Shown piece after piece: positions 1 through 49,296 of a DNA stretch of 50,428 nt; the stretch's first letter is position 1; each line of letters starts with the position of its first letter. The DNA lies in the IMG/VR virus record IMGVR_UViG_2909278081_000001; one strand, written 5' to 3'. The notes beneath the pieces were generated by a model. That model saw only the letters and a list, made by a program, of their open reading frames with translations. It did not search any database and was not told the origin of the DNA. Source of the stretch: a virus (lineage: Duplodnaviria > Heunggongvirae > Uroviricota > Caudoviricetes). Made by a program: the position numbers and the translations under genes.

Positions 1-405
1 ATGGATCAGGTTGTTGTTTTTCAAAAGATGTTTGAGCAAGTGAGAAAAGAGCAAAACTTCTCCTGGTTTTATTCAGAATTAAAACATCACCGTATTGCAC
101 ATTACATTTATTACCTGGCTACGGATAACATCAGAATTATTACTCACGATGACACGGTTTTGTTATTAAGAGGAACCAGGAACCTGTTAAAAGTTAGTAC
201 GACCAAGAACCCTGCTAAAATAAAAGAGGCCGCATTGCTTCATATTTGCGGAAAATCAACATTTCGGGAATACTGTTCAACACTGGCAGGCGCGGGCGTT
301 TTCCGGTGGGTTACTGATGTTAATCATAACAAACGCAGTTACTACGCCATTGATAATACGCTTTTATATATTGAAGATGTAGAAAACAATAAACCATTAA
401 TCTAG
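1..405 (+). CDS. ycgX: host DUF1398-family protein (YcgX-like), 134 aa
   Basis: Complete ORF starting at ATG at position 1; translation matches my recollection of E. coli YcgX, which neighbours iraM. Recalled, not searched. Confidence 0.6.
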   Translation: MDQVVVFQKMFEQVRKEQNFSWFYSELKHHRIAHYIYYLATDNIRIITHDDTVLLLRGTRNLLKVSTTKNPAKIKEAALLHICGKSTFREYCSTLAGAGVFRWVTDVNHNKRSYYAIDNTLLYIEDVENNKPLI

Positions 406-612
406 CTAAAGTTGGAAGCTTAAGAAATGCTTCATAATTCAGTAAGACATTAGCATAATGGAAATAAAAGTGCAGAGACTATCCCTATGGATGATAAATA
501 CTATCTTTTTATTGCCACCCATAAATAATCACCAGGCCAATACTATCAAATTGATATTTGAAATGTGATCACTTGACTTTCTATACGTTATTTTATAACG
601 GTTAACAAATTT

Positions 613-664
613 ATAAAACCAACGGGCGTGCCATACGCCCGTTTCAATACTTAACGCACATGTG
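613..664. repeat. about 50-bp hairpin-containing element, copy 1 of 2 (second copy 1481..1530)
   Basis: ataaaaccaacgggcgtgccatacgcccgtttcaatacttaacgcacatgtg is near-identical to 1481..1530; contains inverted repeat aacgggcgt/acgcccgtt. Confidence 0.6.
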
Positions 665-1107
665 TTTTGGTTTAGTCATCATCCGATTATATGTATTTTA
701 GTCAGGAACGGGTTTAACCATTCCTATATAACTCAAAAATTGAAACCTTATTCTCAGGTCATGCTTATATTCATCATTATCATTATATTAAAAGGCCAAT
801 CATAATGTTTTGCAAATTGGCACAACATAGCATAAAGGCTATGTTTTAATTACAGAATGTTCAGTCATTTGAATGTATAATATTTTAGCTAAACAAATCT
901 AAAACGAAGTGAATAATTTAATGTTTTCACTAAATCTCATTTTGTTTAATCTCTATTGAGATTCCTTGCTTTAAATTTTGTTTTATATAGGTAATGACAT
1001 TAATTTTTAATTAATTTATTTTTTGGGGAGTAATATACACATATGCAAAATCAAGAAATGAACATCCAAATGAACTATATTAAACACCGTGGGATAAGAC
1101 ATAACAA

Positions 1108-1431
1108 ATGAAGTGGATAGTAATTGATACGGTAATTCAACCTACATGCGGCATATCTTTTTCAGCCATATGGGGTGATATGAAAATGATCATCTGGTAT
1201 CAATCTACTATATTTCTCCCTCCTGGAAGTATATTTACACCGGTTAAGTCTGGTATTATCCTTAAGGATAAAGAATACCCTATTACTATTTATAACATCA
1301 CACCATTCAACAAGGATTTATGGATTTTACTCAAAAGCAGTCAAGAGTGTCCTCCAGGAGAAAGCGAAATAACAAATAAATGTTTACATAATAGTTGTAT
1401 TATAAAAATATGCCCATATGGACTCAAGTAA
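1108..1431 (+). CDS. iraM: anti-adaptor protein IraM (RssB inhibitor), 107 aa
   Basis: Translation [12 protein letters not shown]...KICPYGLK matches recalled E. coli IraM/YcgW almost residue for residue; in K-12 iraM lies next to the icdC end of the e14 element. Confidence 0.85.
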
Positions 1432-1488
1432 TGGGCTTCATATAAATATGCTCGACATGCTATTAATAATATCCACATAAATAAAACA

Positions 1489-1512
1489 ACGGGCGTGTTA
1501 TACGCCCGTTTC
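1489..1512 (-). terminator. rho-independent terminator downstream of the icd 3' end (copy 2 of the 50-bp repeat)
   Basis: Hairpin aacgggcgt-gttat-acgcccgtt; on the minus strand it is followed by gttttatttatg, directly after the icd stop codon. Confidence 0.55.
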
Positions 1513-1533
1513 AATATTTAACACATGTAGAGA

Positions 1534-1698
1534 TTACATGTTCTTGATGATCGCATCACCAAACTCGCTGCATTTCAGCAGCTTAGCACCTTCCATCAGA
1601 CGTTCGAAGTCATAGGTTACGGTCTTCGCATTGATTGCGCCTTCCATACCTTTAACAATCAGGTCTGCAGCTTCAGTCCAGCCCATATGGCGCAGCAG
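1534..1698 (-). pseudogene. icdC: isocitrate dehydrogenase 3' fragment (icdC-like), last about 54 codons plus stop; prophage attachment junction
   Basis: Minus-strand translation ...[54 protein letters not shown] equals the Icd C-terminus; homology stops abruptly at about 1698/1699 where AT-rich foreign DNA begins. Confidence 0.85.
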
Positions 1699-2197
1699 TA
1701 TATAAAAACAATAAGTTCAAGTCATTGATATTTAATGATAAAAATTATTTTATTGTCTTTTTATTAGCCAAAATCAACTTTATTCAACCGTTTGATTTCA
1801 TTGACGCTCGTTTTTATTTTGGGGAAAGGTTTTATCTACCATTTATATCAAAATTACAAGTCTACATTTTATTAACATCTCAATACATGTGAGGCCTTGC
1901 AGACCTTTGTGAGACCTTATGTGTCTCAGTTTTGTCCCACCTTTTATTACGACTTGCATAGCCAATGAAGATAAACGTGACGACAAACGGCGCAGCAATC
2001 TTCCTTTCTTTCACACTTTCCCAACCCAGCATGTATACTTTTCTGCCATAACTAAAGTGAATGCCTGTTATGAGCAACAAACAGGCATTAGCGCCGCTAG
2101 CATATTAGCTACCATTCGACTGCCATACTTAAGATTGATTTCTTAAGTATAACCCGGTTTCTAATACTACTTGTATATTCAGCTCTGAGATTCATTT

Positions 2198-5100
2198 TTA
2201 TCTCGTAAAGCTAGTTTTATGACTTCCTGTTAGCTGACTGTCTTCATAATAAAATGCTCCACTAAACTCCTGTCGACCATAATGATGACTTGATGTGAGT
2301 GAGCCCCCTATAACGCCCTTTTCACCTAATAATGTCCAAACGATTTCAAAACCATTGTCCCTTAACATTGTTAAAAATGGTTCTTTTTTAACAAGTAGAT
2401 GCGGCTTTGAAGCATATACAGCTTCAGCTGCAAAGCAAACCATAGTTCCATTTTCATCATTGAAGCTACCCTCTACTTCCCCACTTTTTAATCCCATCTT
2501 TTCAAAGATTAAGTTACTAGGCTTCAAAAAATTCAAAGTTTCTATTTTTGATTTGTCGAACTCCTCTTCCCACAAATAATTAATCGAAGTGACACTAACA
2601 TCAGCAATCTTAGCTCCAGACTCCCGGTCTGTTACCGAAGTCCAGTCAGATCCACCATAATAATCTGATTTAAAAGACTTAAATGCTTCGGACCAATAGT
2701 ACTCCCTATTAAATAATTGGTATCTATCAGTACATTCCGGCATCCACCTGCCCATAAAGTCTTGAGCTATTGCCCAATCTCTAAAATTTTCAAATTCTTC
2801 AACTTTAACGATATAACTTCTGATCTGATACCAAACCTCTTTTCGTGGGTGCCCCCAATCATCGTTTCCAATAATTTTTGGTTCTTTCCATGATGGATAA
2901 CTTTCTAATACTATCCATTCATCACCATTATCATCTTTAACTTCAATAAAAGCATATGAATTAGTTATAGTAGTAGAACTTTTAACCCAGTCTTCATTAG
3001 AGCAAGTCCAATCAAACACTTCATCATTAAGCCACCACATTTCTTTATTGCTTATTTTTTTCGTTCCAGTTTCTTTAAGTAAGATAGTGGGATCTATATC
3101 TCTTACGTAAGGCTCCCATGGCCCTTGGTATGGATTTTCCTTTCGTTCGTCACCATAACCTTCAAAACGAGTAAAATTATCGGCTAGCCTTGCCATGTAT
3201 TCATAATAAGCAATCCATTGGTATTTTTTACCAATCCGTTCTTGGAATGCCTCTCTACGTCCACGTCCAGTTCCTATTTGTTGGTCAAAATTACCATGCT
3301 TCTCCGGATCCCAACCAAGCTCTATAACACGATTGAATATAAATTGTTGAGCTAGTCGAAGATCAAAGTGTTTATCAGTTTCCAGCAGATTATTATTATG
3401 ATCCAGGTATGGCTCTATTTCATTTTCAAACTCACTTAACAGATCGTATGACAATGAATTCTTAAATAATTTCTTGCTCGCCTTTATTTCTTCCTGTGCT
3501 TTTCTACCGACCACACGACCAAATTTAATTCCTTCGCATTTATCATCATAAATGAAAGGATCTGTGGCATCATGCAAATCTTTTTGTTGATCAGTTAGTT
3601 TACATTTGAAAGTTTTAAAAACTTGCTTACGGTCAACAGGGGTTTCATTAAACTTGCAACCAGACCAATCAGAATGATTATAATTTGTTCCAATAGTATA
3701 TCGTGAAAAGTCACCACCTTCCATAATCGAGCTCCAGAGTTCCCGATAAGGTTCTTTATCATAAAGGGACTCTAGTTCCTCTTTTGAAGGAATCTTGTCA
3801 GGCCAAATGCTGTTGTAGGGTGGTCTAGTCTTGGATAATTCAATGCTTTCAAGTTCCAATCCAAGATGATTAGCAAATTCAATAATCTCTCTAGCATAAT
3901 CTCTAAGTAATATATTTGGATACACATACTCAGAACAAAATACCTTTTGGTAAACAGTTTCGGCTAAATATTTTAGTTCTTTAATATTATCAGTTCGCAA
4001 TGTACAGCCTAATGCAACTGCAAATATTCTTTCCCAAACGTAAGGATCATTTACACCATAAAACTTATCAATTATTTTTCTCAATACAGGAATTCTTGGC
4101 TCGAGTAAACTCACTAAAGCCTTGGTTGAGCAATCTCGAAGTTCTCGGTTACTAGAAGTTAAAAACCAGCATAAACTAGTTGCAACTAGCTCGATTGACT
4201 CATCCGAAACGAAGCTTTTGTCTGTTCTGCCCCATGCCCAATCGATTAGATGCCTAAATGCTGAGTCTTCACTATATTTATATTTAAGTTTTGTAGTCCA
4301 AAACGAATCTCGATTTGCCAAAGGGTAATCTTTTAGCCAATCATGCAAGAAATTAGCATTAAAGGGATGGTCAACTAAACCTGAAATAGAGATCACTGCC
4401 TCGAGGAAATGATCAAAACTATCTTTAAATTTAAAAACATGTTCATTGATGAAAGGTCTGATTTTTTCGAAATCAATAGCCTTAATATCTCGCCATATCA
4501 AGCTATCAATAAAGGCTTCTAGTAATTTATGATTATTGCTGAACTCCGGCAGAAGTTCATAAAGCTCTTTTCCATACTTTTCTGGCAATTGAATAGACAG
4601 CGCCTCTACTATTCCCGGGTTTATATAAAAGTCACATTCATCATGAAAATATTTTTTCAGACGACCATCTGACTTAAATTCACTTTCGATATTTTCAACA
4701 TCATTTAATAAAAAATTAACAGTTAAATGATCATCAAACCTTTCAAAAGCCACATGAACTACTTCCTCAGTAGAATTATCATCATTTCTCACTATGCCTT
4801 TAGTCAATAATCCTTCGTCAATCAAGGCGCTGAGGAAGGTTTTATCAGCAACATAATCATTAACTACAGATTGAACCACTGAGTGAGCATCTCTAAGTGA
4901 AATACTATTACGACCAATCTCTAATTTGAATTTTATGATTTCATTGAGAGCATCTTTAACAAGAGGAAAACTGGGATCGAATGCATATTTTCTTGGCGAT
5001 GCTAATGATTTATTTACCCCTTCCACTAAAAAGTTAAAAATATTTGAAATCCCATTAAATCCAACAGGCACTTTGGTTAAACCATTTTTCTTAATGCCTT

Positions 5101-6652
5101 CACACAATAACTTAAGAAATAGAGGGTTTTTAAACTCTGGATTAAGGTTAGGTGATGAAGGCCTCTCTATATTGTAATAATCATAAAATAGACTAACCGC
5201 TTCCAACTCAACGTTCTGAAATCCAATATGTTCATGAATTTCAAAATTATTTCGCTCAACATTCTCATGTGAAATTGTTACATTTCTATATGTTGTTCTG
5301 ACTGACATTATCAGACCAAGCCATTCAAAGCCTCTGATTTCATCGACAAAACTGTTAATATTGTCATTCCAGAATTTATTTCCATTACCTTCATTAATAG
5401 CATCAATAAAAACTAAGACTCTTTTTCCTGTTTTTTTGCCATATAAATTCAGTTTTTCTAGGAATTCACGAGAAGTGATTTTAAGCTGTAATCTCTTGAA
5501 GATTTGTGACCATGGAGATTCATCTGAAGTAAGTTGTTGCCCTAGTATGAGTAGAGAAGGATACCCAGAAGCAATTCGATTTTTAATCACATCAGCCAGT
5601 AAATGAGACTTACCAATTCCAGCTTTTCCTTCGAGAAGTAAGAATGGGTTGTTAGCCAACTTCACTGTTGTTGAATTAATGAATGCACGTAATTCATTGC
5701 ACGCATAGTCAAGTTCCCGAAGCATTCGCAGAGTAGATGAATAATTATCACTGTAATGCTTGGTTTCACCTACTTGTTCTGACTTTTCTCGGAGTTCCCA
5801 CAATATTGATTCCGCTCCGCCAATAGCTGTCTGGCAGCTAGAAACATAGTTATTAAATTTATTTATAGGGACTTCATCTAATTTAGAAAAATTAATTTCT
5901 TGATATATATCAGAAATTTCTTTTAAGGACTGGTCTATTTCAGATAATTGTGAGGAAATTACATCGCAACTATGTAATTTCTTTCCAGTGACCAGAAAAC
6001 TATCTATATGCGAATAAAATATTTTAGAAAAATTATTAGTTCTACCGAGACCATCAAATATCTCTGCTATTTCTAGCTTTACGTTGAGTTCGGGTGTGTA
6101 TCGGCCTCCCAAGTCAGCTATTGCTTGACTACTTTTCTCATTTAACCAATCATCACTCAAGTGAAAAGTTAGTTTCTCATCTATAGACCGCAAAACAAGT
6201 TTAATTTGAATAAGCTCTTCATTAATATCGAATATTTTTTCTTTATAAGTTTCTTCGATATGTAGCTTTTTTAACTTCGAACAATTATTTATTTTTAACG
6301 ACAACATCCCATAAAAAAGGCTGAGTTGTTGTTGAGTTGGGGGAGTGACGCTTGGATATTCTTTGAACTTGTCTAATAACATCTCTTTGTCAGGGAACTC
6401 TTTAAAAAGGATGTGCTCATTCAACATCTCAAACAATGGTTTAGAATGATAAAATGGAATTGCTCCACTTTCTACTGGATATGTTTCTTCAAACTCAATT
6501 GCCGTCTCTTCAATTAGTTGATATAATCTATCCACATATTTTTCTGTGGGGAATAATGCTTTCTTAATCCAACTATATCCTTCTTGAGAAATGAATTGAT
6601 CAATAAGTTTAGTTGCTACATAAGTTGCCACTGTAATTGATATGGGTTCCAT
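2198..6652 (-). CDS. large P-loop NTPase, STAND/NACHT-like (1484 aa); candidate anti-phage defence protein
   Basis: Single uninterrupted 4.4-kb ORF, visibly AT-rich. Walker A LLEGKAGIGKSHLLADV about 330 aa from the N-terminus, Walker B-like RVLVFIDAINEG, long Trp-rich C-terminal region. Family assignment is inferred from motifs only. Confidence 0.6.
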   Translation of the reverse strand: MEPISITVATYVATKLIDQFISQEGYSWIKKALFPTEKYVDRLYQLIEETAIEFEETYPVESGAIPFYHSKPLFEMLNEHILFKEFPDKEMLLDKFKEYPSVTPPTQQQLSLFYGMLSLKINNCSKLKKLHIEETYKEKIFDINEELIQIKLVLRSIDEKLTFHLSDDWLNEKSSQAIADLGGRYTPELNVKLEIAEIFDGLGRTNNFSKIFYSHIDSFLVTGKKLHSCDVISSQLSEIDQSLKEISDIYQEINFSKLDEVPINKFNNYVSSCQTAIGGAESILWELREKSEQVGETKHYSDNYSSTLRMLRELDYACNELRAFINSTTVKLANNPFLLLEGKAGIGKSHLLADVIKNRIASGYPSLLILGQQLTSDESPWSQIFKRLQLKITSREFLEKLNLYGKKTGKRVLVFIDAINEGNGNKFWNDNINSFVDEIRGFEWLGLIMSVRTTYRNVTISHENVERNNFEIHEHIGFQNVELEAVSLFYDYYNIERPSSPNLNPEFKNPLFLKLLCEGIKKNGLTKVPVGFNGISNIFNFLVEGVNKSLASPRKYAFDPSFPLVKDALNEIIKFKLEIGRNSISLRDAHSVVQSVVNDYVADKTFLSALIDEGLLTKGIVRNDDNSTEEVVHVAFERFDDHLTVNFLLNDVENIESEFKSDGRLKKYFHDECDFYINPGIVEALSIQLPEKYGKELYELLPEFSNNHKLLEAFIDSLIWRDIKAIDFEKIRPFINEHVFKFKDSFDHFLEAVISISGLVDHPFNANFLHDWLKDYPLANRDSFWTTKLKYKYSEDSAFRHLIDWAWGRTDKSFVSDESIELVATSLCWFLTSSNRELRDCSTKALVSLLEPRIPVLRKIIDKFYGVNDPYVWERIFAVALGCTLRTDNIKELKYLAETVYQKVFCSEYVYPNILLRDYAREIIEFANHLGLELESIELSKTRPPYNSIWPDKIPSKEELESLYDKEPYRELWSSIMEGGDFSRYTIGTNYNHSDWSGCKFNETPVDRKQVFKTFKCKLTDQQKDLHDATDPFIYDDKCEGIKFGRVVGRKAQEEIKASKKLFKNSLSYDLLSEFENEIEPYLDHNNNLLETDKHFDLRLAQQFIFNRVIELGWDPEKHGNFDQQIGTGRGRREAFQERIGKKYQWIAYYEYMARLADNFTRFEGYGDERKENPYQGPWEPYVRDIDPTILLKETGTKKISNKEMWWLNDEVFDWTCSNEDWVKSSTTITNSYAFIEVKDDNGDEWIVLESYPSWKEPKIIGNDDWGHPRKEVWYQIRSYIVKVEEFENFRDWAIAQDFMGRWMPECTDRYQLFNREYYWSEAFKSFKSDYYGGSDWTSVTDRESGAKIADVSVTSINYLWEEEFDKSKIETLNFLKPSNLIFEKMGLKSGEVEGSFNDENGTMVCFAAEAVYASKPHLLVKKEPFLTMLRDNGFEIVWTLLGEKGVIGGSLTSSHHYGRQEFSGAFYYEDSQLTGSHKTSFTR

Positions 6653-7183
6653 GATTAGCTTCTTCCAACAATTAAATTTTTTACCAAGCGTTTATGCTTT
6701 CCAATAATTATTACATCTCACCGTAAAACATATTTATATGGTTTTAAACCTATCTGTAAATCTTGACACCTTGGCAAGAACCTAATCCTACATTTTAATA
6801 TCAATCTATATAATATCGCCAGCGTCATAATAATCGGGCTTGTCATAGTTAAGTATTCGCCTCCGATATCCCAATGAGATAAGTAAGTCATAAGTGTTAT
6901 AAATGAAAAGGTTTCATTTTTCAAAGAGTTATTATGATGGAATATTATTCAAAACGCAATGTGGCTGAAACGAGTCTGAATCTAACATCCGCTCCTAGCA
7001 CATAGCAGCCATAGAGACAGTGGCGTAAAGTCATGGAGGATCGGTGGGAGAAGGTGCAAATCCTCCCCTACAAAAAATACGTAAAAACGGTAACGGCTGG
7101 AAATCATTCAATACTCGCACTATCGAAAGTTAACCAGCCAGCCGCAGTATCCTATCATGACAAGTTACTGCGGCTTTTTATAT

Positions 7184-7501
7184 TTAACGGATCAACAGCC
7201 AGACCAGCAGACATGCCACCACCGGCACAGCAAAATCCATCAGGCTTGCCACATCCCATGCACGAGGATCAAAACCGCCCCACCACGGCATGTTAATCCG
7301 CTTGCCATGCCCGAACATTTCAATCCAGCGATATTCTGCCTGGGTATGTTCACGAGCGATGAAGAACGTACAACCAGCTATCGCACCGTAAGCCCAGTTT
7401 CCGGTAAAAAGACCAACCAGTACCTGCGCAGCCACAGCACAAAGCGCGTGAAGGAAAGGTGTTATATCCATTTTCATCCTACCCAATAAAACGGGACTCA
7501 C
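7184..7501 (-). CDS. small hydrophobic protein, likely inner-membrane; function unknown
   Basis: ORF with two hydrophobic stretches (AVAAQVLVGLF, VPVVACLLVWLLI); true start may be Met9 or Met11; sits between the distal fiber gene and the NTPase gene. Confidence 0.45.
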   Translation of the reverse strand: MSPVLLGRMKMDITPFLHALCAVAAQVLVGLFTGNWAYGAIAGCTFFIAREHTQAEYRWIEMFGHGKRINMPWWGGFDPRAWDVASLMDFAVPVVACLLVWLLIR

Positions 7502-7513
7502 GGCCCCTTAATA

Positions 7514-8554
7514 TTATTTAGACGCAAGCGCCGCCTCAATTGCAGATAATCTTTGTCTTAATTCTGCGTTTTCTTCTTCCAGTGCTGTTATTCTGTCGTC
7601 GGACTCTCTGGCTACCTGAACAAGCAAGCCAGTAACACCAGAATAATCTACAGTGTAATACCGTTCACCTTCTTCGCCTTCAGATCCGCTACCACCGTCC
7701 CTATATTTTATCGTAGAGCCTACGGACTCTGGAATTGCTTCTAAGGCTTCCTGTGCGATAACACCAGCGTAAGGCATCCCGTTTTCTTTAAGCGTGTATG
7801 TATAACCATTCATCTTACGGATGCGATTGGTTGCATTATCAATCACCTGAATATTATCTTTCAGGTCTCGGTCAGAGGTCTGGTTAAATGCGGTCGCTTG
7901 ACATGCACCATTAACAGCAAATGCATATGTGTCATCTGTTTGTTTTTGACCGAAGAATATAAAAGCCCCACCATCTACACCAACTTCATAAACAACCGGA
8001 CGGCTGGAGTTGCCCCACAATTTAGCAGTAACGCCAGCGTGAGCGGTTCCCTGTGTGTTTAGTGTCATGGTCGAACCATGATTAGCATATTTGATCTGTA
8101 ATGTGTCTGTATAATCAAATTTAATCAGGGCATTATCTACACGATCCCCATAGGACATGAGGCATTTACCCATTTTCAAATAACCAGCAGTGCCAGGGAA
8201 AATTAAAGTTCCTCCGTAAAGATCACTAAAGTCCCAAAAGATACCTTTTGTCCCGTTATGTGTGACGATCCTCGTCATTGTATCTTTAGTACCATCAATA
8301 TTTTTTCTTGTATATATATCACTATAAGCGTTTTCCGTTTCACCAGTCTTATTTGACAAATGCAGCTTACCGCTGAATATAGTTCCAGTTGTTGGCAATG
8401 TTTTTTGTTCATAGATTACATTGCAATAACCATTCCATGTTGTTTTATTGTCTACATAAGATTTTGTTGCATAGCTTCCTTGATCAGTTTTTAGTTTACT
8501 AACATCGGATTTTAGCGTTTTGATGTCATCAGGAATTACTGTTTTTGTAACCAT
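7514..8554 (-). CDS. tail fiber/tailspike-like protein with C-terminal intramolecular-chaperone (S74-type) domain and coiled-coil tail
   Basis: C-terminal DRDLKDNIQVIDNATNRIRKMNGYTYTLKE... resembles the auto-cleaving chaperone of fiber/endosialidase proteins, then ALEEENAELRQRLSAIEAAL coiled coil. By motif, not lambda Tfa. Confidence 0.6.
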   Translation of the reverse strand: MVTKTVIPDDIKTLKSDVSKLKTDQGSYATKSYVDNKTTWNGYCNVIYEQKTLPTTGTIFSGKLHLSNKTGETENAYSDIYTRKNIDGTKDTMTRIVTHNGTKGIFWDFSDLYGGTLIFPGTAGYLKMGKCLMSYGDRVDNALIKFDYTDTLQIKYANHGSTMTLNTQGTAHAGVTAKLWGNSSRPVVYEVGVDGGAFIFFGQKQTDDTYAFAVNGACQATAFNQTSDRDLKDNIQVIDNATNRIRKMNGYTYTLKENGMPYAGVIAQEALEAIPESVGSTIKYRDGGSGSEGEEGERYYTVDYSGVTGLLVQVARESDDRITALEEENAELRQRLSAIEAALASK

Positions 8555-8566
8555 TGTCTTACTCCA

Positions 8567-8836
8567 TTAAGCCCATGTCCTTACATGCTGATCTGTCGTA
8601 ATGAAAGGCATTAAAGAAGATATGTTTTTACTGCCATCAACAATCCTCATGTTTACGAAAAAACCACCGCGATCAATGCCTGTACATCTTTCGTTTTCTG
8701 GCTCCTCGTAATCGATAATGCAGCCAATAACATCAACAAGAACCCCATTTTCTTCTTCAAGACTGAACAGGCCACTGTCATATACAATTGCGTTAAACTG
8801 TTCTCTGTTATCGAATCGTAATGTTATATCCCGCAT
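8567..8836 (-). CDS. hypothetical protein, 89 aa, translationally coupled to side tail fiber gene
   Basis: Start overlaps the stf stop by 1 nt; acidic; no recognised motif. Confidence 0.45.
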   Translation of the reverse strand: MRDITLRFDNREQFNAIVYDSGLFSLEEENGVLVDVIGCIIDYEEPENERCTGIDRGGFFVNMRIVDGSKNISSLMPFITTDQHVRTWA

Positions 8837-11199
8837 TATACGTATTCCTTAAGCTGCGTATCTGACAATGCTCTGTTCCAGAAACGGAGGTTTTTTATAT
8901 GACCATTAAGGTGTCGTAATCCTGTCGTCGTTTGCCCCCCGATACGAATCACGGCAGCTTCACGAATATATTTCCATACTGTTTTTGTTTCTGTGCTTAT
9001 ATGCTTATTTGCAAATGAGCATGTCATGCCGTCAGCCTTAACCCTGAATCCCATAACGAGATCTCTTACTCCGCATGACTCATATACACGTCGGTTAGCC
9101 CCGCCTATATCGCAATACGAATAACCATCCTGACTAATAGTTCCAGAAGAACCAAACCCCATAATAAATGGGCCCCCGGACTGGTGATTTTCTGAATCAA
9201 TGACACGCGGTGCAGCATTATGAGAAATAAACCAGTTTTTATGGACTTCCACCATGAACGTAAAAGGCATGGTATACATATTTTTCATCAGCGGAAATTT
9301 ACATAAATCTGATGCACGAGTAGCTGGCTCTGTTGTCGTTATGATAAAGGAAGTTGCACAAGCACCATACTCAAATTGCGGGGTGGTTACTTCTATCCAG
9401 TCACCTGTTGCAAAAGACCCCACAGCTCTGTCGGCTGCAATTTGCAACTGCGTACCAACCATTCCCCATTCTGGCAGACATTTCAGGGTTGCCTGAAAAT
9501 ATATCCATCCACTACCTGGATCGATTTCAAAGTTTGCTGTTAATAGCTGGGCATTACCACCCGTAATTTGTAGTTCATGGGTCTGTAATGACAAATAGGC
9601 GTCACAAAGGAAAGTGTATCCTTCCGAGTTATACCGTTCAAAACGGATACGTGCGCGAACATTGAGATCACTTCTTACCCTGAACGACGCGGTAACATAC
9701 GGACCTTTACTGTACTGATCATCGCCAGTCACATCTATGCCTTTATTACCAGCAACTGTGCATATATTTCTCCCTGTTGTCGTTCCTGCTATGTCGCTTC
9801 CTACTGTGAAACGTCCATATTTAAACTCAAATTCATCTGTTGATGATGTTACAGATATACCACCGCTTTTATTCCAGGCATCAGGATTAAAACTATTTAC
9901 GAACATGTTTGTTCGCTGATTCTCTATCAGCAAACCATATTTTTCAAAACGAGGAACGTTATTCCCTGCCACGGTAATATGCCCGGACTTATCAATATAC
10001 GTTGCAGATGAAGCCCGGCTAAATTGGCATATGCCATTAACAGGCATTGTTATTTCATCACTGCCGATGGTTATTGTTTTATAGCCCGGGGCATACCCTG
10101 TTATCGCTTCCAGAGAATCATTCAAGGGTAGCCAGATATCAGGAAGCGGAGGGACAGAAGCAGGATCAGCGGCATCTTCTGCAATCCGGGCTGCATTCTC
10201 TGCTCTTGTTGCGGCTGACGTTGCTTCTGTCTCGCTGGCTGCTGCTTTTGTTTCACTCGTCTTTGCGTTAGTTTCACTGGCTTTTGCAGCTTTTTGGCTA
10301 TTAGCTGCCGCTGTTGCAGAACCGGCCGCCGCGCTCTCGCTTTCAGCTGCTGCAGCCTGGCTGTTTTTCGCCGCAGTTTCACTGGCTTTGGCATTCGTTT
10401 CGCTGGTTTTCGCTGCCGTCTGGCTGGACTTTGCGTTAGTTTCACTCGTCTTCGCTGCTTTCTGACTGTTAGCCGCAGCAGTTGCTGATCCGGCTGCTGA
10501 AGTCGCAGAACCAGCTGCAGCACTCTCGCTTTCGGCTGCTGCATCCTGACTGCTTTTCGCTGCAGTTTCGCTGGCTTTGGCATTCGTTTCGCTGGTTTTC
10601 GCTGCCGTCTGGCTGGACTTTGCGTTGGTTTCGCTCGTCTTTGCGGCTGTCTCGCTGTTTTTCGCGTTGGTTTCTGATTTTTTGGCTGCTGTCGCGGAGT
10701 TTGCCGATGCAGTCTGTGAGGTCGCTGCCGCCTGTGCGCTGTTAGCTGCATTCGTTTCTGAGGTTTTCGCCGCGTTCTTCGATGATGCCGCTGCAGTTTC
10801 GGATTTCTTTGCCGCCGCTGCGCTCTGAGAGGCGGCTTCGGCGTTGCGTGCCGCTTCTTCCACCATTTCCTGAAAACGGCGCAATGCCTCCGGCATGACA
10901 TCATCTTCCGTCATGGCACCGAGAAAATCATTCAGCGTCCCCGGACTGGAACCTTCATAGACGGTAATGGTCCCAACATGTGATGGCTGAGAACCCTCAA
11001 TCCACAGGATGACGCTGTACTGACCATACTCAACGTCCATACTGTAACGCCCGGCTTCATCAGGATTTTCAGATGCCACCGTGTTCACCAGTACCGTGGT
11101 GCTGTTACGCTTTGCCTTCAGTTGAATAGTGCAGTTCTGTATTGGTTTTCCCGCACCATCTTTCAGCACACCTGAGATTTTTACTGCTGCCATATCCAC
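8836..11199 (-). CDS. stf: side tail fiber protein (Stf-like), 787 aa, mosaic
   Basis: N-terminus AVKISGVLKDG...QNCTIQLKA matches lambda Stf; Ala/Ser/Thr-rich repetitive middle; C-terminal half unlike lambda Stf as recalled. Confidence 0.85.
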   Translation of the reverse strand: MDMAAVKISGVLKDGAGKPIQNCTIQLKAKRNSTTVLVNTVASENPDEAGRYSMDVEYGQYSVILWIEGSQPSHVGTITVYEGSSPGTLNDFLGAMTEDDVMPEALRRFQEMVEEAARNAEAASQSAAAAKKSETAAASSKNAAKTSETNAANSAQAAATSQTASANSATAAKKSETNAKNSETAAKTSETNAKSSQTAAKTSETNAKASETAAKSSQDAAAESESAAAGSATSAAGSATAAANSQKAAKTSETNAKSSQTAAKTSETNAKASETAAKNSQAAAAESESAAAGSATAAANSQKAAKASETNAKTSETKAAASETEATSAATRAENAARIAEDAADPASVPPLPDIWLPLNDSLEAITGYAPGYKTITIGSDEITMPVNGICQFSRASSATYIDKSGHITVAGNNVPRFEKYGLLIENQRTNMFVNSFNPDAWNKSGGISVTSSTDEFEFKYGRFTVGSDIAGTTTGRNICTVAGNKGIDVTGDDQYSKGPYVTASFRVRSDLNVRARIRFERYNSEGYTFLCDAYLSLQTHELQITGGNAQLLTANFEIDPGSGWIYFQATLKCLPEWGMVGTQLQIAADRAVGSFATGDWIEVTTPQFEYGACATSFIITTTEPATRASDLCKFPLMKNMYTMPFTFMVEVHKNWFISHNAAPRVIDSENHQSGGPFIMGFGSSGTISQDGYSYCDIGGANRRVYESCGVRDLVMGFRVKADGMTCSFANKHISTETKTVWKYIREAAVIRIGGQTTTGLRHLNGHIKNLRFWNRALSDTQLKEYV
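10250..10640. repeat. tandem duplication of about 190 bp inside stf
   Basis: gcagtttcactggctttggcattcgtttcgctggttttcgctgccgtctggctggactttgcgtt at about 10374 recurs nearly exactly at about 10562; encodes ...TSETNAKSSQTAAKTSETNAKASETAAK... twice. Unit boundaries approximate. Confidence 0.8.
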
Positions 11200-11202
11200 T
11201 CC

Positions 11203-11230
11203 ACAAAAAAGCCCGCCTGAACCGGCGGGC
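11203..11230 (-). terminator. rho-independent terminator after lom
   Basis: Hairpin gcccgcc-tgaa-ccggcgggc followed on the minus strand by TTTTTTGTGG. Confidence 0.7.
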
Positions 11231-11257
11231 TGTCATAACACTGTGTTACCTGGCTAA

Positions 11258-11857
11258 TCAGAACTTATAACCGACACCCACGATGAAACCGTCAGTGCGC
11301 CAGTCACCACTGCCAGAACCTTCATAAGCAATATCAATGGCCACGGATTCGGTCGGGTTAAACTGCACGCCAGCCCCCCACGCCAGAGACGTGTTGCTGT
11401 GGCGACCGTCATCACTTCCGGTCAGCACATCGTGCGTTTTCCCCTTGTTGTCAGTTACGCGAAGGTAATCCCCGGAAAAAGTCGAAACACGGCTGTAAGC
11501 CATACCCGCCATCGCATACGCGCTGAACCATTCATTCACGCGCACAGACGGCCCCGCCATCACGCTGAACCAGCGGTTACGCACGGAATCTTCATGCCAG
11601 CGGGTATCGCTGTAACGGGTCAGCTGGCGATTCTTGTCTCCTGCATAGCTGAATGACGTCACCAGCCCCAGCGTATCCGTAAACTCATAACGGTATTTAA
11701 CGTTAATCCCGTTCAGATCATCACTGCCGGGAACGTTGGTCCGGGCATGAAGATACCCCGCGCTCAGCGTGGACTGATGTTCAGATGCCCATGCAGGCGC
11801 ACCGGATACGGCCAGACAAATGGCTGCGGACAAAATGGCGGCATAAAGTTTACGCAT
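11258..11857 (-). CDS. lom: outer membrane protein Lom (Ail/Lom family)
   Basis: Near-identical to recalled lambda Lom (MRKLYAAILSAAICLAVSGAPAWA... ending GFIVGVGYKF); signal peptide present. Confidence 0.95.
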   Translation of the reverse strand: MRKLYAAILSAAICLAVSGAPAWASEHQSTLSAGYLHARTNVPGSDDLNGINVKYRYEFTDTLGLVTSFSYAGDKNRQLTRYSDTRWHEDSVRNRWFSVMAGPSVRVNEWFSAYAMAGMAYSRVSTFSGDYLRVTDNKGKTHDVLTGSDDGRHSNTSLAWGAGVQFNPTESVAIDIAYEGSGSGDWRTDGFIVGVGYKF

Positions 11858-11926
11858 AATTACCTCTCGCTTTTCTGCAATAAAAAAGGCACCATTTCTG
11901 GTGCCCTTATATGGGTTATAACAATT

Positions 11927-14900
11927 TCAACGAATACTGATGCCGGAAGCGGCTTTTTTGGTCACAATCACCGTACAGTCGGTGATATTACCTGCCCATT
12001 GATTGCCTTTATGGAAAACCTTAAACTCCAGAGTGACGCTTCCCCTGCCACTCGGCATATCAATAACCGCACTGTAGCTACCGGGAATGGCCCCTTTAGT
12101 TTCTCTGGATGCGATTAATACACCGTTTTTGCGAACTTCAAAACCATAACCCGTGTATCTTGTACCTCCCGGGTTATTACCACTTCCCGGATCGCTATAC
12201 GCTATTCCGTTAAAGATAATGGGCGGAATAATGATTTGACGGGCAAAGTTATGATCATCGCTGATGGTGACTGTAACCGTCCCGTTTGGCGTTTCCGTGT
12301 TACCCCACGTACCAGCCTGTTTCGGAAATGATTTGGATACAGCTTTAACGAAGTCACCTCTGACCTGAGTCGCCTCCAGCATGCCCTTAATCGTACAGTT
12401 CTGGTTAATCGTGACATTGTTGAGCGTTCCTGAGTTCGCATTCACACTACCACTGATATCCGCATTTTTAGCGGTCAGCTTTCCGTCTGATGTCAGGGAA
12501 AATACCGGAGGACTGCCACCGCTGGTAATGGTGGGGGCTGTCAGGCGCTTCAGGAACACGTCGTTCATGAATATCTGGTTGCCCTGCGCCACAAACATCG
12601 GCGTTTCATTCCCGTTTGCCGGGTCAATAAACGCGATACGGTTAGCGGCAACCAGAAACTGGCTCAGCTTGCCTTCCTCCGTGTCCTCCATGCTGAGGCC
12701 AATACCCGCGACATAATGTTTGCCGTCTTTGGTCTGCTCAATTTTGACGCCCCACATGGCATTCCATTTATCGTTAGCGTCCTTCCACTCTTTCGAAAAC
12801 TCATCCAGTCTGCTGGCGTTATCCTCCGTCAGATCAACTTTTTCCAGCAGCTCTTTACCGAGATGGGATTCGGTTATCTTGCCTTTGAAAAAATCCAGGT
12901 AACCTTCCGCATCATCGCTCGCCCGACCGACGGCCTCCACGAATGCCGATTTGCCAACGGTGTTCACACTGCGGATATAAAAGTAATAATCATGGCCCGG
13001 TTTGATATTGATACTGGCGGCTATCCAGTACAGCGCCGTACCAAGATAGCGGGCTGTGGTTTCAACCTGCCTGATATCGGTAATCCGCTTTTCCGAGAAC
13101 CAGAACTCAAACTGTACCGTCGGGTCATAAACGGCAAGATGCGGCGTGGCGGTTATCTGAAAATAGCCCGGCGTCAGCTCAATCCTCGACGGTGCTGCCG
13201 GTGCGGCAATCCGGAACGATACCGACGCCGGATCGCCCTGCTGCCCCCAGGCATTTGCCGCCCGGACTGTCAGCCTGTAGTTTCCCAGCGCCAGTTGCGT
13301 GAAGCGGTATGTGGTTTCCGTCGTCCGGGCCGTGCTGACCAGCAGCTCACTGCCGTCATCCGCTGTTACGGTCAGACGGAGCAGGAAGCTCACGCCCTTC
13401 ACCACCTTCGGCGTGTCCCAGCGCGCCAGCACCTGATATTCCCCGCTGTCTGCGGTGACTTCGGCGGTCAGGTGCTGCACCGCTGGCGGCGTGACACCAT
13501 TCACCGTGCCGCTCTGGTCGCCGTCAAAGTGCGCCCCGTTATCCACGATGGCTTCTTTTTCCGGTACATGCTGCACGGCAGTGATGGCATACGTGCCGTC
13601 ATCGTTCTCACGGATACTCACACAGCGGAACAGGCGCTGACGCAACGTCGGCAACTTCAGCCCCCACACACTGTATTCTGCAACGCCGTCAGGAACCCGG
13701 TTCACTTTCACCTTAAGTCCGTCGGTGACGGACTGAACCTCCACGCTGACCGGATTACCACTTCCGTCAACCAGGCTTATCAGCGTGGTACCGGAGGATG
13801 GCAGCGTGATTTCACGGTCGAGCGTCAGCGTCCGGGTCTGGCTGTTCACCGCCAGCACGCGACCACCGGTGCTGATACCGGCATAGTCATCATCGCAGAT
13901 TTCAATGACATCGCCCGGTACATGGCGAAGCCCTTCAGCACCCACGCTGAAATCCACGGTCTGCGTCTCCAGCAGTTCCGTTTTAATCAGCCACAGCCCG
14001 GCGCGGTGTGCCTGCCCCCGGCTGGTACAGCCAAAGGCATCCATCTTCGTGACATTACGACCGTAACGGGCAATGGCCTGCGTATCTTCAACAAGCTCTG
14101 TCGCCGTCTCCCAGCCGTTGTTCGGGTCAATCCAGTTCACCTCAACGGCATTATGGCGGTCCTTCAGGGCGCTGAAGCTGTAGCGGAACGGCGCGCCATC
14201 ATCCGGCATCACCACATTACTGCGGTTATAGGTCCACACCTTATCTGATGGTCGGTCCTGCACGAACGTCAGCGTCTGCCCGTTCCATACCGGCATACAG
14301 CGCATCGCCGAGCAGAAATCACTGAGCACATCCCACGCCTTACGCTGCGTGGTCAGGTAGGCATTACAGGTGATGCGCGGCTCCGTGCCGCCAAAACCGT
14401 CCGGCACTGACTGGTCGCAGTACTGGCCGATGACATACAGCGCCCATTTATCCACATCCGCCGCACCAAGACGTTTCCCCATGCCGTAGCGCGGGTGGGT
14501 CAGCATATCCCACAGACACCAGGCCGGGTTGTTGCTGTATGCCGGCTTAAACGTTCCGTCCCAGATACCGCTGTATTGCCGCGTCTGCGGGTTATAGTTC
14601 GACGGCACCTGCAGAATGCGCCCGCGAAGATGATAATTACGGCTCACCTGCTGGCTGCCGAACTGCTCCGAGTCCACCTGCACGCCGACCAGTGCCGTGT
14701 TCGGGTAGCACTGTTTCACATCGATGATTTCGGTGTATGACGACCAGAGCGTTTTGTTCTGCAGCTGGTCTGTGGTGCTGTCCGGCGTCATCCTGCGCAT
14801 CCGGATATTAAACGGGCGCGGCGGCAGGCTACCCACCACCACCGAGGCCAGATACTGCGAGGTGGTTTTGCCCTTAATGGTGATGTCTTTTTCCGTCACC

Positions 14901-15340
14901 CAGCCACCGTTACGTTGTATCTGAACCAGCAGGCGGACTTCCGACGGATTCCTGTCCCCCTTTGAGGTGGTTTCCACCAGTGCCTGCACGCCGAAAGTAA
15001 AACGCAGACGGTCAATGTTTGCCGACGTGATGGTCCGGGTGATCGGCGTGTCATATTTCACTTCCGTACCCAGCACCGTCTCGGATCCGGAGGATTCAAA
15101 ACCCTCCGGCGGTGTCTGCTCCTGCTCACCTGCCCGGAACACCACCGTGACACCGGCGATGTTGGTATTCCCCTCACTGTCCAGCACCGGCGTACTGTTC
15201 AGCAGCACGCTTTTTAATCCATCCACCGGACCTTCTATCGGCCCTTCGCTGATGGCATCGATCACACTCAGTAACTGCGTGGATTTCAGGTTGTCCTTCG
15301 CTTCGCGCGGGGTATGCCCCTTACTGCTGCCTTTACCCAT
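11927..15340 (-). CDS. J: tail tip / host specificity protein J
   Basis: 1137 aa; N-terminus [21 protein letters not shown] matches lambda J; position between lom and I. Confidence 0.95.
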
Positions 15341-15400
15341 TCGTCATGCTCCATAAACGACAAAACCGCCCGCAGGCGGTTTCACATAAAACATTTTGCA

Positions 15401-16072
15401 TCAGCGACCAATCACCACAACCTGACCAGCATCCCCTTCGTCTGCCGTGCTGATCTCCTGAGAAACCACCCGCGACCCCACACGCATTTCACCGTACAGA
15501 ACAGGCAAAACATTGCCCTGGGCAACCATGTTATCCAGTGAGGAGAAATAGGTGTTCTGCTTACCGTTATCCGTTGTCTGTGTGCGGGGAGTTCTGGCTT
15601 TCGGTGCCAGCATCTGAGCCACACCGCCGAGCACCATACTGGCACCGAGAGAAAACAGAATGCCGGTCATACCACCGGCCCCAATGGCTGTCCCCCATGC
15701 TGCAAGGGTGGCTCCGGCGGTAAAGAATGATCCGGCAATGGCGGCTGCCCCCAGGACAATCTGGAATACGCCACCTGACTTGGCCCCGGCGACTCTGGGA
15801 ACGATATGAATCACAGCGCCGTCAGGCAGAGCCTCATGTAACTGCGCCGTTAATCCGGACGTGCTGACATCCTGCCCGGCAATACGTACCTGATACCAGC
15901 CGTCGCTCAGTTTCTGACGAAACGCAGGGAGCTGTGTGGCCAGCGCCCGGATGGCTTCGGCCCCCGTTTTCACACGAAGGTCGATGCGGCGGCCAAATCG
16001 TTGTAAATCCCCGTAAAGGCAGATGCGTGCCATGCCCGGTGACGCCAGAGGGAGTGTGTGCGTCGCTGCCAT
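15401..16072 (-). CDS. I: tail assembly protein I
   Basis: 223 aa, matches lambda gpI as recalled. Confidence 0.95.
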   Translation of the reverse strand: MAATHTLPLASPGMARICLYGDLQRFGRRIDLRVKTGAEAIRALATQLPAFRQKLSDGWYQVRIAGQDVSTSGLTAQLHEALPDGAVIHIVPRVAGAKSGGVFQIVLGAAAIAGSFFTAGATLAAWGTAIGAGGMTGILFSLGASMVLGGVAQMLAPKARTPRTQTTDNGKQNTYFSSLDNMVAQGNVLPVLYGEMRVGSRVVSQEISTADEGDAGQVVVIGR

Positions 16073-16713
16073 TTGTCGGTATACCTCTCTCGTTTGCTCA
16101 GTTGTTCAGGAATATGGTGCAGCAGCTCGCCGTCACCACAGTAAATGGCGGCATGATTCGGCACCGATGAACCAAAACAGCACAGCAGCACATCGCCCGG
16201 CTGCGCCGCTGACAGCGGCACCTGATACAGCCCTGTGGCCTCCAGATTATCCAGATAGAGATTCTGACCGTTACGCCACCAGTCATCCTCACGATGAAAA
16301 TCCGGCATCTCAATCCCCGCCAGATGGTAAGCATCCCGGAACAGCGTGTAACAGTCCGTCACCCCGTGCTCAAAGCGCCGCCCGGTGAGATGCGGCACAC
16401 AGCGGAACTTATGAATCGCCCCCCGGCAGACCAGCCACCACGGCAAATCACTCTGCACCTGCAGTCGCCGGTCGGCCTCACTCAGCCAGGGCAGACCACC
16501 GGGATGGCTGTGCACCAGCGCCACAATCTCACCCTGCATTTCTGCCTGCAGCCAGTCTTCCGGCGACATACGGAAATACGCCTCCGGCTCACCGGAGATA
16601 TTCACGCAGGGGAAATATCTTTCCCCCTCCGGCGTGCTTACCACGAAGCCGCACGACTCCGCTGGCGCACATCGCCGGGCGTGCGCCAGAATCGCTGATT
16701 CTGTCTCTGTCAT
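15970..16713 (-). CDS. K: tail assembly protein K (JAMM/MPN plus NlpC/P60-like)
   Basis: Lambda gpK-like; HSHPGG...SEAD JAMM motif; start boundary uncertain (alternative start at Met49). Confidence 0.85.
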   Translation of the reverse strand: MTETESAILAHARRCAPAESCGFVVSTPEGERYFPCVNISGEPEAYFRMSPEDWLQAEMQGEIVALVHSHPGGLPWLSEADRRLQVQSDLPWWLVCRGAIHKFRCVPHLTGRRFEHGVTDCYTLFRDAYHLAGIEMPDFHREDDWWRNGQNLYLDNLEATGLYQVPLSAAQPGDVLLCCFGSSVPNHAAIYCGDGELLHHIPEQLSKRERYTDKWQRRTHSLWRHRAWHASAFTGIYNDLAAASTFV

Positions 16714-16718
16714 GGGAT

Positions 16719-17417
16719 TTACTGCGAAAGTTTGTTAATGGAAAGGAAGCCGCCAAAGTTGCCGACATTATTGCGGAACTTACAACCGCTCAGGCATTTG
16801 CTGCATTTATCCTTCGTGATATCGGACGTTGGCTGGTCATATTCATCCGCGACCGCCGGACCGTGATAACCGCACTCATCGCCGCGATAGGTCCAGGTGC
16901 AGGTGTTGGCCAGCATGATACGTCCCGGAAAAACAGCGCCGTCCGTTTCCGTCGGCGTGGACAGTACAAAAGAGGCACTCACCGCGCTCAGTTCGCTGCA
17001 CTGCTCAATGCGCCAGCGGCTGATCACCTCCTGCTCCGGATCGGCGTCACTGTTTCCGTTGACGAAGTTCACCGCATCCAGAAAACGGGCGTAAACCTTA
17101 CGCCGGACCACCGTTCCGCCGACCAGACTCTGCAGATCTTCCGCCATCCCGGTGACCATACCGTACAGGTTAGAAACCGTCAGCGTGGGGCGCGTACTGG
17201 TGCCTTTGCCATTCAGTTCAAAACCACTCCCCTGAATGGGATACGGCTGATACTGTCGCCCCTGCCAGGTGACCGGCTCACCTTTTTCGTTCTGCTCATT
17301 ACAGAAAAAATAACGTTCTCCACCGACCTCTGTCAGATCGATTTCCCAGAGCACCACGCTGGCCGACTGCTCCGCACGGGTGCATTCATTCAATGTTTCC
17401 TGCCGGATATCCTGCAT
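16719..17417 (-). CDS. L: minor tail protein L
   Basis: 232 aa, matches lambda gpL (MQDIRQETLNECTRAEQ...). Confidence 0.95.
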   Translation of the reverse strand: MQDIRQETLNECTRAEQSASVVLWEIDLTEVGGERYFFCNEQNEKGEPVTWQGRQYQPYPIQGSGFELNGKGTSTRPTLTVSNLYGMVTGMAEDLQSLVGGTVVRRKVYARFLDAVNFVNGNSDADPEQEVISRWRIEQCSELSAVSASFVLSTPTETDGAVFPGRIMLANTCTWTYRGDECGYHGPAVADEYDQPTSDITKDKCSKCLSGCKFRNNVGNFGGFLSINKLSQ

Positions 17418-17746
17418 CAGTTCACCACCTGTTCAAACTCTGCGCTGAACTCAACACGCAGCATACTGACCCGCGACGACCATTTTGCGCAGGTCACCTT
17501 TATCTGCCGCCACTCATAAGGCGGCGTCCACAGAAAGGATTTCCAGCCACCGTGCTCAGCCAGAAACGACTCCAGCGCCGTGGCCTCCCAACGGGGAACA
17601 GAAAGCGTCACGCTGTACGTTTTCAGGTCGGCATTCAGCCCGGCAGGCGCTCGCTGGGAATAGCCATCACCAAAGCGCACCTTTCTTACAGAAGGGGCCG
17701 AAGCCACATCCATACCGGGTTTCACTTTCCAGCGGAAGGTTTTCAT
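17417..17746 (-). CDS. M: minor tail protein M
   Basis: 109 aa, matches lambda gpM (MKTFRWKVKPGMD...). Confidence 0.95.
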   Translation of the reverse strand: MKTFRWKVKPGMDVASAPSVRKVRFGDGYSQRAPAGLNADLKTYSVTLSVPRWEATALESFLAEHGGWKSFLWTPPYEWRQIKVTCAKWSSRVSMLRVEFSAEFEQVVN

Positions 17747-21898: not shown

Positions 21899-22294
21899 TC
21901 ACATTTCATAGGTAATGACATAAGTCAGATCGGCTGAACTCCACAGGCCCGCATCATCGTCGCGCCGGTAGTCATAGCCGCTGGCCACCATACTGGTGAT
22001 CAAATCTGACAGTGCCGGGATATCGCTCATCACCGGATAAATCCGGGACTCCATCCACGCATCCAGCTCTGAATCCGGCACCTGAGCAGGCAGGAAAACT
22101 TCGATATGCAGCTCCGCCTGCCAGGTATCGCTGTCCAGCTCTTCGCCCGTGTATTCAGCGCCGGTGAGATAAACGGCAACTGCCGGAAAATCCGCCTCAT
22201 CAAAAACAGCGGGGCGACCATCAAAAAACGTCGCCCGGGTGTCATGCTTCTCCAGTGCATCCAGTACGGCTGCACGGAGTTCAGTATGTTTCAT
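21899..22294 (-). CDS. U: tail terminator protein U
   Basis: 131 aa, matches lambda gpU. Confidence 0.95.
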
Positions 22295-22868
22295 CGCTTT
22301 ATTACCATCCTCAGTTGATGCTGCAGCGCATAGCCCAGCTCTTTCGGAAGACGTTCACGCCGTATCCGCTCAATATTTTGTTTAAACGCCGTGGTCAGCG
22401 GCACCGCCATCGGGATTTTCACCACATCAATGGGGTAACGGTTTTTCCCGGCCACACGCTGCATGACATGCCACCGGCCATTTTTCAGTTGCTGAATAAA
22501 CGCGCCGGGAATACGACGGTTACCCACCACAAGCACGCTGCCGCCACCTTTCAGGGATGAACGCTGCCCCTTTTTACGACGCCTGCGGCGCGAAAGGACA
22601 ACCCGCGCATTACCCAGCTTGATTACGGGCAAATCCCCCGGTTAACTTTGATTCTGGCCTGCGGATTTTTGACCGTGGCCCTTTTCAGCCTGGCCCTTTC
22701 CTTTACCAGTTTCCGGCGTACCTTTGTCTCACGGGCAACCTGTGACGCCGACTGCGATATCGCGGATGAAGCAACGCGGTTAATGGCCATTGCGGCGGCA
22801 CCAGGCACCGCCGTTTTGCTGATACGGCTGAGGTTTTCAACGGCCTGCTCAAGACCTTTTATGGCCAT
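22291..22868 (-). pseudogene. Z: tail completion protein Z, split by a 1-nt frameshift in a C5/G5 homopolymer
   Basis: Two abutting ORFs (81 aa MAIKGLEQAVENL...KVNRGICP* and 113 aa ...PVIKLGNARVV...) together span the length I recall for lambda gpZ (about 192 aa); frames join if one G is added at 22635..22639. Confidence 0.75.
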
Positions 22869-42239: not shown

Positions 42240-42268
42240 TTGACCATCAATACGCAAGCGTATAAATT
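42240..42268 (+). promoter_or_regulatory. pRM-like promoter for cI (probably leaderless transcript)
   Basis: TTGACC, 17-nt spacer, TAAATT, ending 7 nt before the cI ATG at 42276. Confidence 0.5.
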
Positions 42269-42275
42269 AAAACTT

Positions 42276-49059: not shown

Positions 49060-49296
49060 ATGTCTCGACTAATCACTTTACAGGACTGGGCTAAAGAAGA
49101 ATTTGGGGACTTAGCACCAAGTGAGCGAGTTCTGAAAAAATACGCGCAAGGGAAAATGATGGCCCCACCCGCTATAAAAGTTGGTCGCTACTGGATGATT
49201 GACCGAAATTCCCGTTTTGTAGGAACGCTTGCAGAACCGCAACTCCCAATAAACGCAAACCCAAAACTCCAACGGATAATCGCTGATGGCTGCTAG
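49060..49296 (+). CDS. xis: excisionase
   Basis: 78 aa, immediately upstream of and overlapping int; size and layout similar to lambda Xis. Confidence 0.75.
   Translation: MSRLITLQDWAKEEFGDLAPSERVLKKYAQGKMMAPPAIKVGRYWMIDRNSRFVGTLAEPQLPINANPKLQRIIADGC

Follow-up and report, generated by a model that had tools for sequence, protein, structure and literature searches.

A displaced icd 3' end as the very probable attR of a lambda-like prophage with a phage 21-type integration module

Introduction

How does the end of a host gene come to lie at the edge of a lambda-like phage sequence, and is what remains there still a gene? The question is raised by a 50,428-nucleotide stretch of DNA assigned to the Caudoviricetes (IMG/VR record IMGVR_UViG_2909278081_000001), the whole of which is referred to here as the window. 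Close to its left end, the minus strand contains a short open reading frame resembling the C terminus of isocitrate dehydrogenase (Icd). Use of the 3' end of a gene as an attachment site, with the phage bringing along a replacement for the displaced end, is textbook knowledge and known from e14 (1989) and phage 21. That e14 integrates into icd and supplies a replacement of 165 nt is credited to Hill et al. (1989) where PMC6379469 and PMC13626634 cite that work, and the attB shared by phages 21 and e14 is the subject of Wang et al. (1997), an entry in the references of PMC12803456. The prophage NC-SV of Escherichia coli NC101 is described in the same article as related to lambda and as occupying the phage 21 site in icd.

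Results

The icd fragment and its host flank

Translation of positions 1534 to 1698 on the minus strand yields 54 residues, 53 of which were identical to residues 363 to 416 of the full Icd protein of E. coli GF43 in a BLASTP comparison (E = 2e-36). The original prediction had read this segment as the end of isocitrate dehydrogenase, and the protein match confirmed that reading. The limits of the homology were determined in a four-way alignment of attR (the window), attL (SK1144 and C4), attP (phage 21 and Lambda_4C10), and attB (GF43, unoccupied), in which nucleotide homology with icd stops at 1697/1698. The first codon of the open reading frame, CTG (Leu, 1696 to 1698), shares only TG with the ATG of Met-363, so that genuine coding homology amounts to 164 nt, comprising codons 364 to 416, the stop codon, and 2 nt of codon 363 (1534 to 1697, minus strand). 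An abrupt end inside icd had been predicted at about 1698/1699; the abruptness held, but the exact position did not, as the boundary lies one base further left. To the right of 1697, ungapped identity to icd drops to 95/378, which is the random level. Codon 363 of icd is thus where the junction falls, and the displaced 3' end lies at the int-distal prophage end.

Positions 1534 to 1697 were identical to the GF43 attB at 162 of 164 nucleotides and to phage copies at 152 to 156. Because in-frame stop codons are found directly upstream of it, the fragment represents a dead 3' end, an icdC-type pseudogene that forms the B' half of attR. Its counterpart in E. coli C4 is labeled by PGAP as an N-terminally truncated isocitrate/isopropylmalate dehydrogenase pseudogene, and in K-12 it is annotated as icdC, 165 nt in length and adjoining iraM.

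The duplicated block runs 53 nt beyond the icd stop codon, through the icd terminator hairpin (1488 to 1510 by terminator scan), to about position 1481. This part, which is the host flank 3' of icd and contains its intrinsic terminator (1481 to 1533, minus strand), was identical to the unoccupied site of GF43 at all 53 positions and to the attP and attL copies at 48 to 52. For the block as a whole (1481 to 1697), 215 of 217 nucleotides were identical to the empty icd site of GF43 and 204 to the phage-borne copies. Ordinary E. coli chromosome occupies the left end of the window, where the host genes ycgX (1 to 405) and iraM (1108 to 1431; NCBIfam IraM, 170 bits against a cutoff of 121) are in K-12 order.

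The phage arm and the core

The sequence to the right of the junction, 1698 to 2075, was assigned by its match to phage 21 attP as the phage arm of attR, that is, the P arm of a phage 21-type attP. Over 1481 to 2075, the window was 90.6% identical to phage 21 positions 27550 to 26954, which is the int-distal side of the attP region. Compared without gaps, the arm itself was identical to phage 21 at 312/378 positions and to the attR of C4 at 376/378. It also matched the attP arm of Lambda_4C10 and was unrelated to icd and to the arm of e14. The predicted prophage junction inside icd is therefore real, with host sequence (iraM, the icd terminator, and the icd 3' end) left of 1697 and a phage 21 attP arm right of it.

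The arm contains a dodecamer of the arm type, TTTTGGGGAAAG, at 1817 to 1828, which is an exact match to the consensus YYTTCCCCAAAA taken from the phage 21 GenBank record and whose position is conserved in phage 21 and Lambda_4C10. Two of the five matches to the IHF consensus in the window fall within the arm, at 1718 to 1730 and 1785 to 1797. In the phage 21 record OL657228.1, the layout consists of int, three arm-type sites (P1P2P3) with this dodecamer consensus, a terminator, and a 165-nt "ICDH-like" pseudo-CDS. By our own measurement, the outermost attP dodecamers are about 400 bp apart. Wang et al. reportedly found in 1997 that phage 21 has a long minimal attP, with which this spacing agrees. 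With gathering thresholds applied, Rfam gave no hit anywhere in the window. The published prophage small RNA svsR/co293 maps in NC-SV to the cI region, not to the att region.

The last stretch common to host and phage is the core block CCCATATGGCGCAGCA (1682 to 1697), which ends at the right homology limit of 1697/1698 and is present only once in the window. The junction of e14 is at the same nucleotide position. Judging from the alignment, strand exchange must fall in, or just left of, this core. The sole differences between the window and the empty site of GF43 in 1481 to 1697 are two core positions, CAGCA versus TAACA. These five bases, the final ones before the junction (1693 to 1697), occur as two synonymous alleles, with Leu-364 encoded by CTG or TTA. 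Both were found among attP-like, attL, and attR sequences, and the single attB that was read had TAACA; the core alleles ...GCGCAGCA and ...GCGTAACA both occur on host-derived and on phage-derived sides. Phage and host copies evidently exchange sequence here. A crossover to the left of 1692, at which this polymorphism seemed to hint, was dropped because both alleles are spread over the site types.

Integrase and excisionase

At the opposite end of the window, int (49286 to 50428, plus strand) encodes a lambda-family tyrosine integrase of the phage 21 type with an N-terminal arm-DNA-binding domain (Pfam PF09003, E = 1.8e-28; PF00589, E = 8.9e-24). Over 380/380 residues it was 99.2% identical to the Int of phage 21 (M61865.1, OL657228.1), and it was 100% identical to the Int of the isolated phages Lambda_4C10, 4A7, 1W, 3W, Perceval, PhiR47_2, and PhiR63_2. 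Identity to IntE of e14 was only 60% over 303 aligned residues. An icd-targeting integrase had been predicted at this far end; the identity to phage 21 bears this out and makes the enzyme the phage 21 integrase itself, not a mere analogue. The excisionase gene xis (49060 to 49296, plus strand) exceeded the gathering score of Pfam PF07825 Exc (E = 6.7e-06) and shares 11 nt with int; SK1144, C4, and phage 21 all have an annotated excisionase in the same place.

The int-side junction in relatives

The last base of the window is the end of the int stop codon. The sequence beyond int was read at 13 loci, namely all 10 contigs returned for the exact Int protein together with SK1144, C4, and one further locus (L011). 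All 13 had an intact icd (416 aa) convergent with int; the replacement icd 3' end that had been predicted outside the window is thus the rule in these relatives. The gap between the int stop codon and icd was 113 nt in 12 of them and 125 nt in C4, and the junction was located 277 nt past the int stop in the same proportion of loci (12/13) and 289 nt past it in C4. This shift is explained by dodecamer number: the attL of C4 (L014, 8956 to 9245) contains four tandem TTTTGGGGAA dodecamers, and the other twelve loci have three (L001 and L036 to L045 compared). Beyond int, the gene order in the relatives is icd, rluE, nudJ, mnmA, and hflD, with purB further on in most.

Among 5,426 complete E. coli genomes, the int region was found in 1,679, the int-icd junction in 1,676, and an unoccupied iraM-icd site in 3,026. 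This puts the phage 21-type icd module in roughly 31% of them. C4 shares the attR of the window, including the neighboring avs2, and its int-icd junction is about 46.5 kb away. The lysogens SK1144 and C4 and the nonlysogen GF43 have one Icd accession in common (WP_000444487.1), so that the phage-supplied 3' end is silent at the protein level in SK1144 and C4.

By analogy with these loci, the attL of this genome should lie about 277 nt beyond 50428, giving a prophage of about 49.0 kb; the genomes of Lambda_4C10 and 4A7, at 49.2 kb, are close to this value. We infer that this attL would consist of the TTTTGGGGAA dodecamers, a terminator copy AACGGGCGTGTTATACGCCCGTT, and the junction ...CATRTGGCGYARCA|TCATCTCAGCGG, followed by icd. 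The best full-length matches in complete E. coli genomes to the left 2.2 kb of the window and to 1600 to 7200 were both in C4 (97.2% and 99.3% identity, respectively), and none of these genomes had a full-length match of at least 99.5% to either region. The nearest int-side locus covered 5,450 of 6,000 nt at 98.8% identity.

The prophage body and its cargo

Sequence comparison with lambdoid phages identified 1698 to 50428, from the side-tail-fiber or b region to int, as a lambda-like prophage body. In a comparison of the left arm with window positions 6700 to 31000 as the query, the matched part (query 4142 to 24144, corresponding to window 10841 to 30843, Nu1 through J) was 97.8% identical to bases 1 to 20001 of lambda h434 imm21 and 97.5% identical to phage 434. 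The right half was 97.4 to 97.7% identical, at 74 to 80% coverage, to the isolated phages PhiR47_2, Lambda_4C10, 4A7, 1W, 3W, and Perceval. The mosaic proposed for this phage, lambda morphogenesis genes combined with a non-lambda integration module, is thus borne out by structural genes at 97.5 to 97.8% identity to lambda and 434 and an Int of the phage 21 type. Prophages whose integrases and attachment sites are quite different, such as one next to mlrA, also have the same SIR2-type gene and early region, which shows that the integration module is exchanged as a unit.

Phage 21 itself (M61865.1, OL657228.1) shares with the window not only Int but also the int-xis DNA (99.0% identity), the attP arm with its dodecamer (90.6%), the phage-borne icd 3' end with a terminator copy, and the position of the junction. 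Its tail genes were 95.8% identical. It differs in the head and packaging genes, including terminase, which are of the lambda type in the window and only about 66% identical, in the immunity region, and in the cargo of the b region, where phage 21 has sitABCD. The isolated lambda-like phages Lambda_4C10, 4A7, 1W, 3W, Perceval, and PhiR47_2 share both the identical Int and lambda-type morphogenesis genes.

The cargo of the b region, situated between the attR arm and the side-tail-fiber genes, is avs2 (AVAST type 2; 2198 to 6652, minus strand), which encodes 1,484 aa. It was matched over its full length (NCBIfam NF041813, 1,697 bits against a cutoff of 1,000; PADLOC Avs2, 1,763.7 bits), and its orthologue in C4 is annotated as avs2. 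A close Avs2 homologue was absent from 50,697 phage records, which sets the window apart from the isolated phages. The slot that holds avs2 here is occupied by sitABCD in phage 21 and by mcrA in e14. The avs2 cassette (window 1880 to 7145) was present in 86 of the 5,426 complete E. coli genomes and was seen at the icd junction only in C4; another genome that was inspected has it next to a truncated integrase and pinE/tail-fiber remnants.

Immediately after the gene for a cI-like repressor (42240 to 42968) there is a second candidate defense gene (43075 to 44682, plus strand), encoding a SIR2_2-domain protein of 535 aa that scored 780.8 bits with the candidate defense family PDC-S25. In relatives with an identical Int, this slot holds M78 peptidase and DUF4411 genes, kinase and PP2C phosphatase genes, or other genes. 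The nin region contains a gene for an alpha/beta-hydrolase of the esterase-like type (35780 to 36823, plus strand) and one for a 508-aa, YbcK-like large serine recombinase (37173 to 38699, minus strand). The related isolated phages 4A7, 1W, and Perceval carry these two genes as well.

Discussion

The junction at 1697/1698 is very probably the attR of a lambda-like prophage that entered E. coli icd by way of a phage 21-type module. In the mechanism that we propose, the phage attP carries a duplicate of the final 164 nt of icd and of the terminator, about 217 nt in all, located between int with the dodecamer cluster and the crossover point. Int would exchange strands at the 5' edge of the homology, around icd codons 363 to 368. 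On the int side, integration would then fuse the chromosomal body of icd to the phage-borne 3' end (its final 53 codons) and terminator, and the reconstituted gene would encode an unchanged Icd protein, as it does in the relatives read. The original host 3' end with its terminator would be left stranded as a dead fragment at the opposite prophage end, beside iraM. Xis acting with Int would reverse the integration.

One textbook system, the cryptic prophage e14 of K-12, uses the same host gene, has its junction after the same ...GCGCAGCA, supplies a 165-nt icd 3' end, and leaves icdC next to iraM. It differs, however, in its integrase, in having its own terminator copy, and in an int that is not adjacent to icd. 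Its arm after ...GCGCAGCA reads TTAGTTAGATG... and bears no similarity to the GTATATAAAAA... of the window. Moreover, Icd residues are altered by the copy that e14 brings but not by that of the phage 21-type relatives. Membership in the e14 group was rejected for the IntE identity of only 60% and the unrelated arm sequence; an Int identity of 99.2% to phage 21 makes the module that of phage 21. NC-SV, which is likened to the window by its published description, is also lambda-related and located at the phage 21 site in icd.

Compared with the gal-bio system of lambda, the module has the same arm-binding and catalytic domains in Int, an xis that lies upstream of and overlaps int, arm-type and IHF-like sites in the arms, the same prophage gene order, and lambda-type structural genes. 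The phage 21 record notes only a distant similarity of phage 21 Int to lambda Int. In contrast to lambda, the target lies within a protein-coding gene and involves a long stretch of homology, and attP is longer, as reflected in the distance of about 400 bp between its outermost dodecamers.

It should be noted that a prophage that arrived by this route could by now be defective, so that the junction would be a fossil and neither excision nor phage production would be expected. We consider this unlikely. What speaks for it is tail completion gene Z (22291 to 22868, minus strand), which relative to phage 21 and C4 is split into open reading frames of 81 and 113 aa by a 1-nt deletion at about 22635 to 22640. 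A G run has five residues in the window and six in phage 21; Z of C4 is intact at 579 nt, and alignment to it gives the same 1-nt gap. The deletion may be a genuine mutation that inactivates the gene, or it may be a homopolymer sequencing error, of which a change from G6 to G5 is typical. If real, the defect may leave a prophage without infectious particles, and the frameshift would affect any induction experiment, but it would not block excision, and it has no bearing on how the junction arose. Against a fossil, int and xis are intact, Int is identical to that of isolated plaque-forming phages, and the attR arm has diverged from that of C4 at only 2 of 378 positions. Furthermore, the other lambda morphogenesis open reading frames that were checked have the lengths known for their lambda counterparts, and no further uncompensated indel was present against the references compared.

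Far less probable is that some other icd-targeting element, such as an e14-type or older phage, left the icd fragment behind and that the present prophage is merely adjacent to it, for example, in a tandem array. The e14 junction coincides exactly with that of the window, and displaced fragments in many genomes have phage-type polymorphisms, suggesting repeated use of the site. In addition, a second, diverged copy of the icd terminator is present at 612 to 663. Such an origin of the fragment is nevertheless difficult to reconcile with the sequence to the right of 1697, where a phage 21-type arm unrelated to that of e14 is contiguous and collinear with phage 21 attP through 2075. The core also occurs only once in the window, and no second integrase was noticed among open reading frames of at least 90 aa, a portion of which had been domain-scanned. 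As for chance similarity to icd, or a local gene duplication with no phage involved, no point in its favor was found, and we give it practically no credence in view of the protein match (53/54 identities, E = 2e-36), the identity to the empty site (215/217 nt), and the known attP arm that abuts the fragment.

We regard attachment through the phage 21-type module as correct, already known, and very common, and it carries little weight beyond correct annotation. The novelty implied by the original prediction was not sustained, because isolated phages with the same combination of modules have already been sequenced and a lambda-related prophage at the icd site has been published. What an annotator gains is that the short icd-like open reading frame is an icdC-type attR pseudogene, not a gene, and that the left prophage boundary is set at 1697/1698. 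By analogy with the relatives, the functional icd of this strain would be the copy with a phage-supplied 3' end. The Avs2 defense gene next to attR and the frameshift in gene Z are mildly useful extras only.

The second terminator copy (612 to 663, 52 nt), on the far side of iraM, is 88% identical to 1480 to 1528, with an alignment score of 69 compared with 21.7 ± 2.7 for shuffled sequences. In E. coli this sequence is confined to the icd locus, and the median number of places per genome is two. A decayed icd fragment was not detectable beside it (alignment score of 18 compared with 20.8 ± 2.7 for shuffles). Homologues of ycgX in E. ruysiae, E. whittamii, and related species were 77 to 81% identical, with icd, iraM, and the terminator all absent from within 4 kb of them. 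The copy may be the scar of an older icd integration or a local duplication. That the icd 3' flank records more than one round of phage integration seems to us rather doubtful. If the copy were such a scar, the iraM-ymgK block, including the gene for the RpoS anti-adaptor IraM, would be decayed phage cargo that arrived through the same attachment site.
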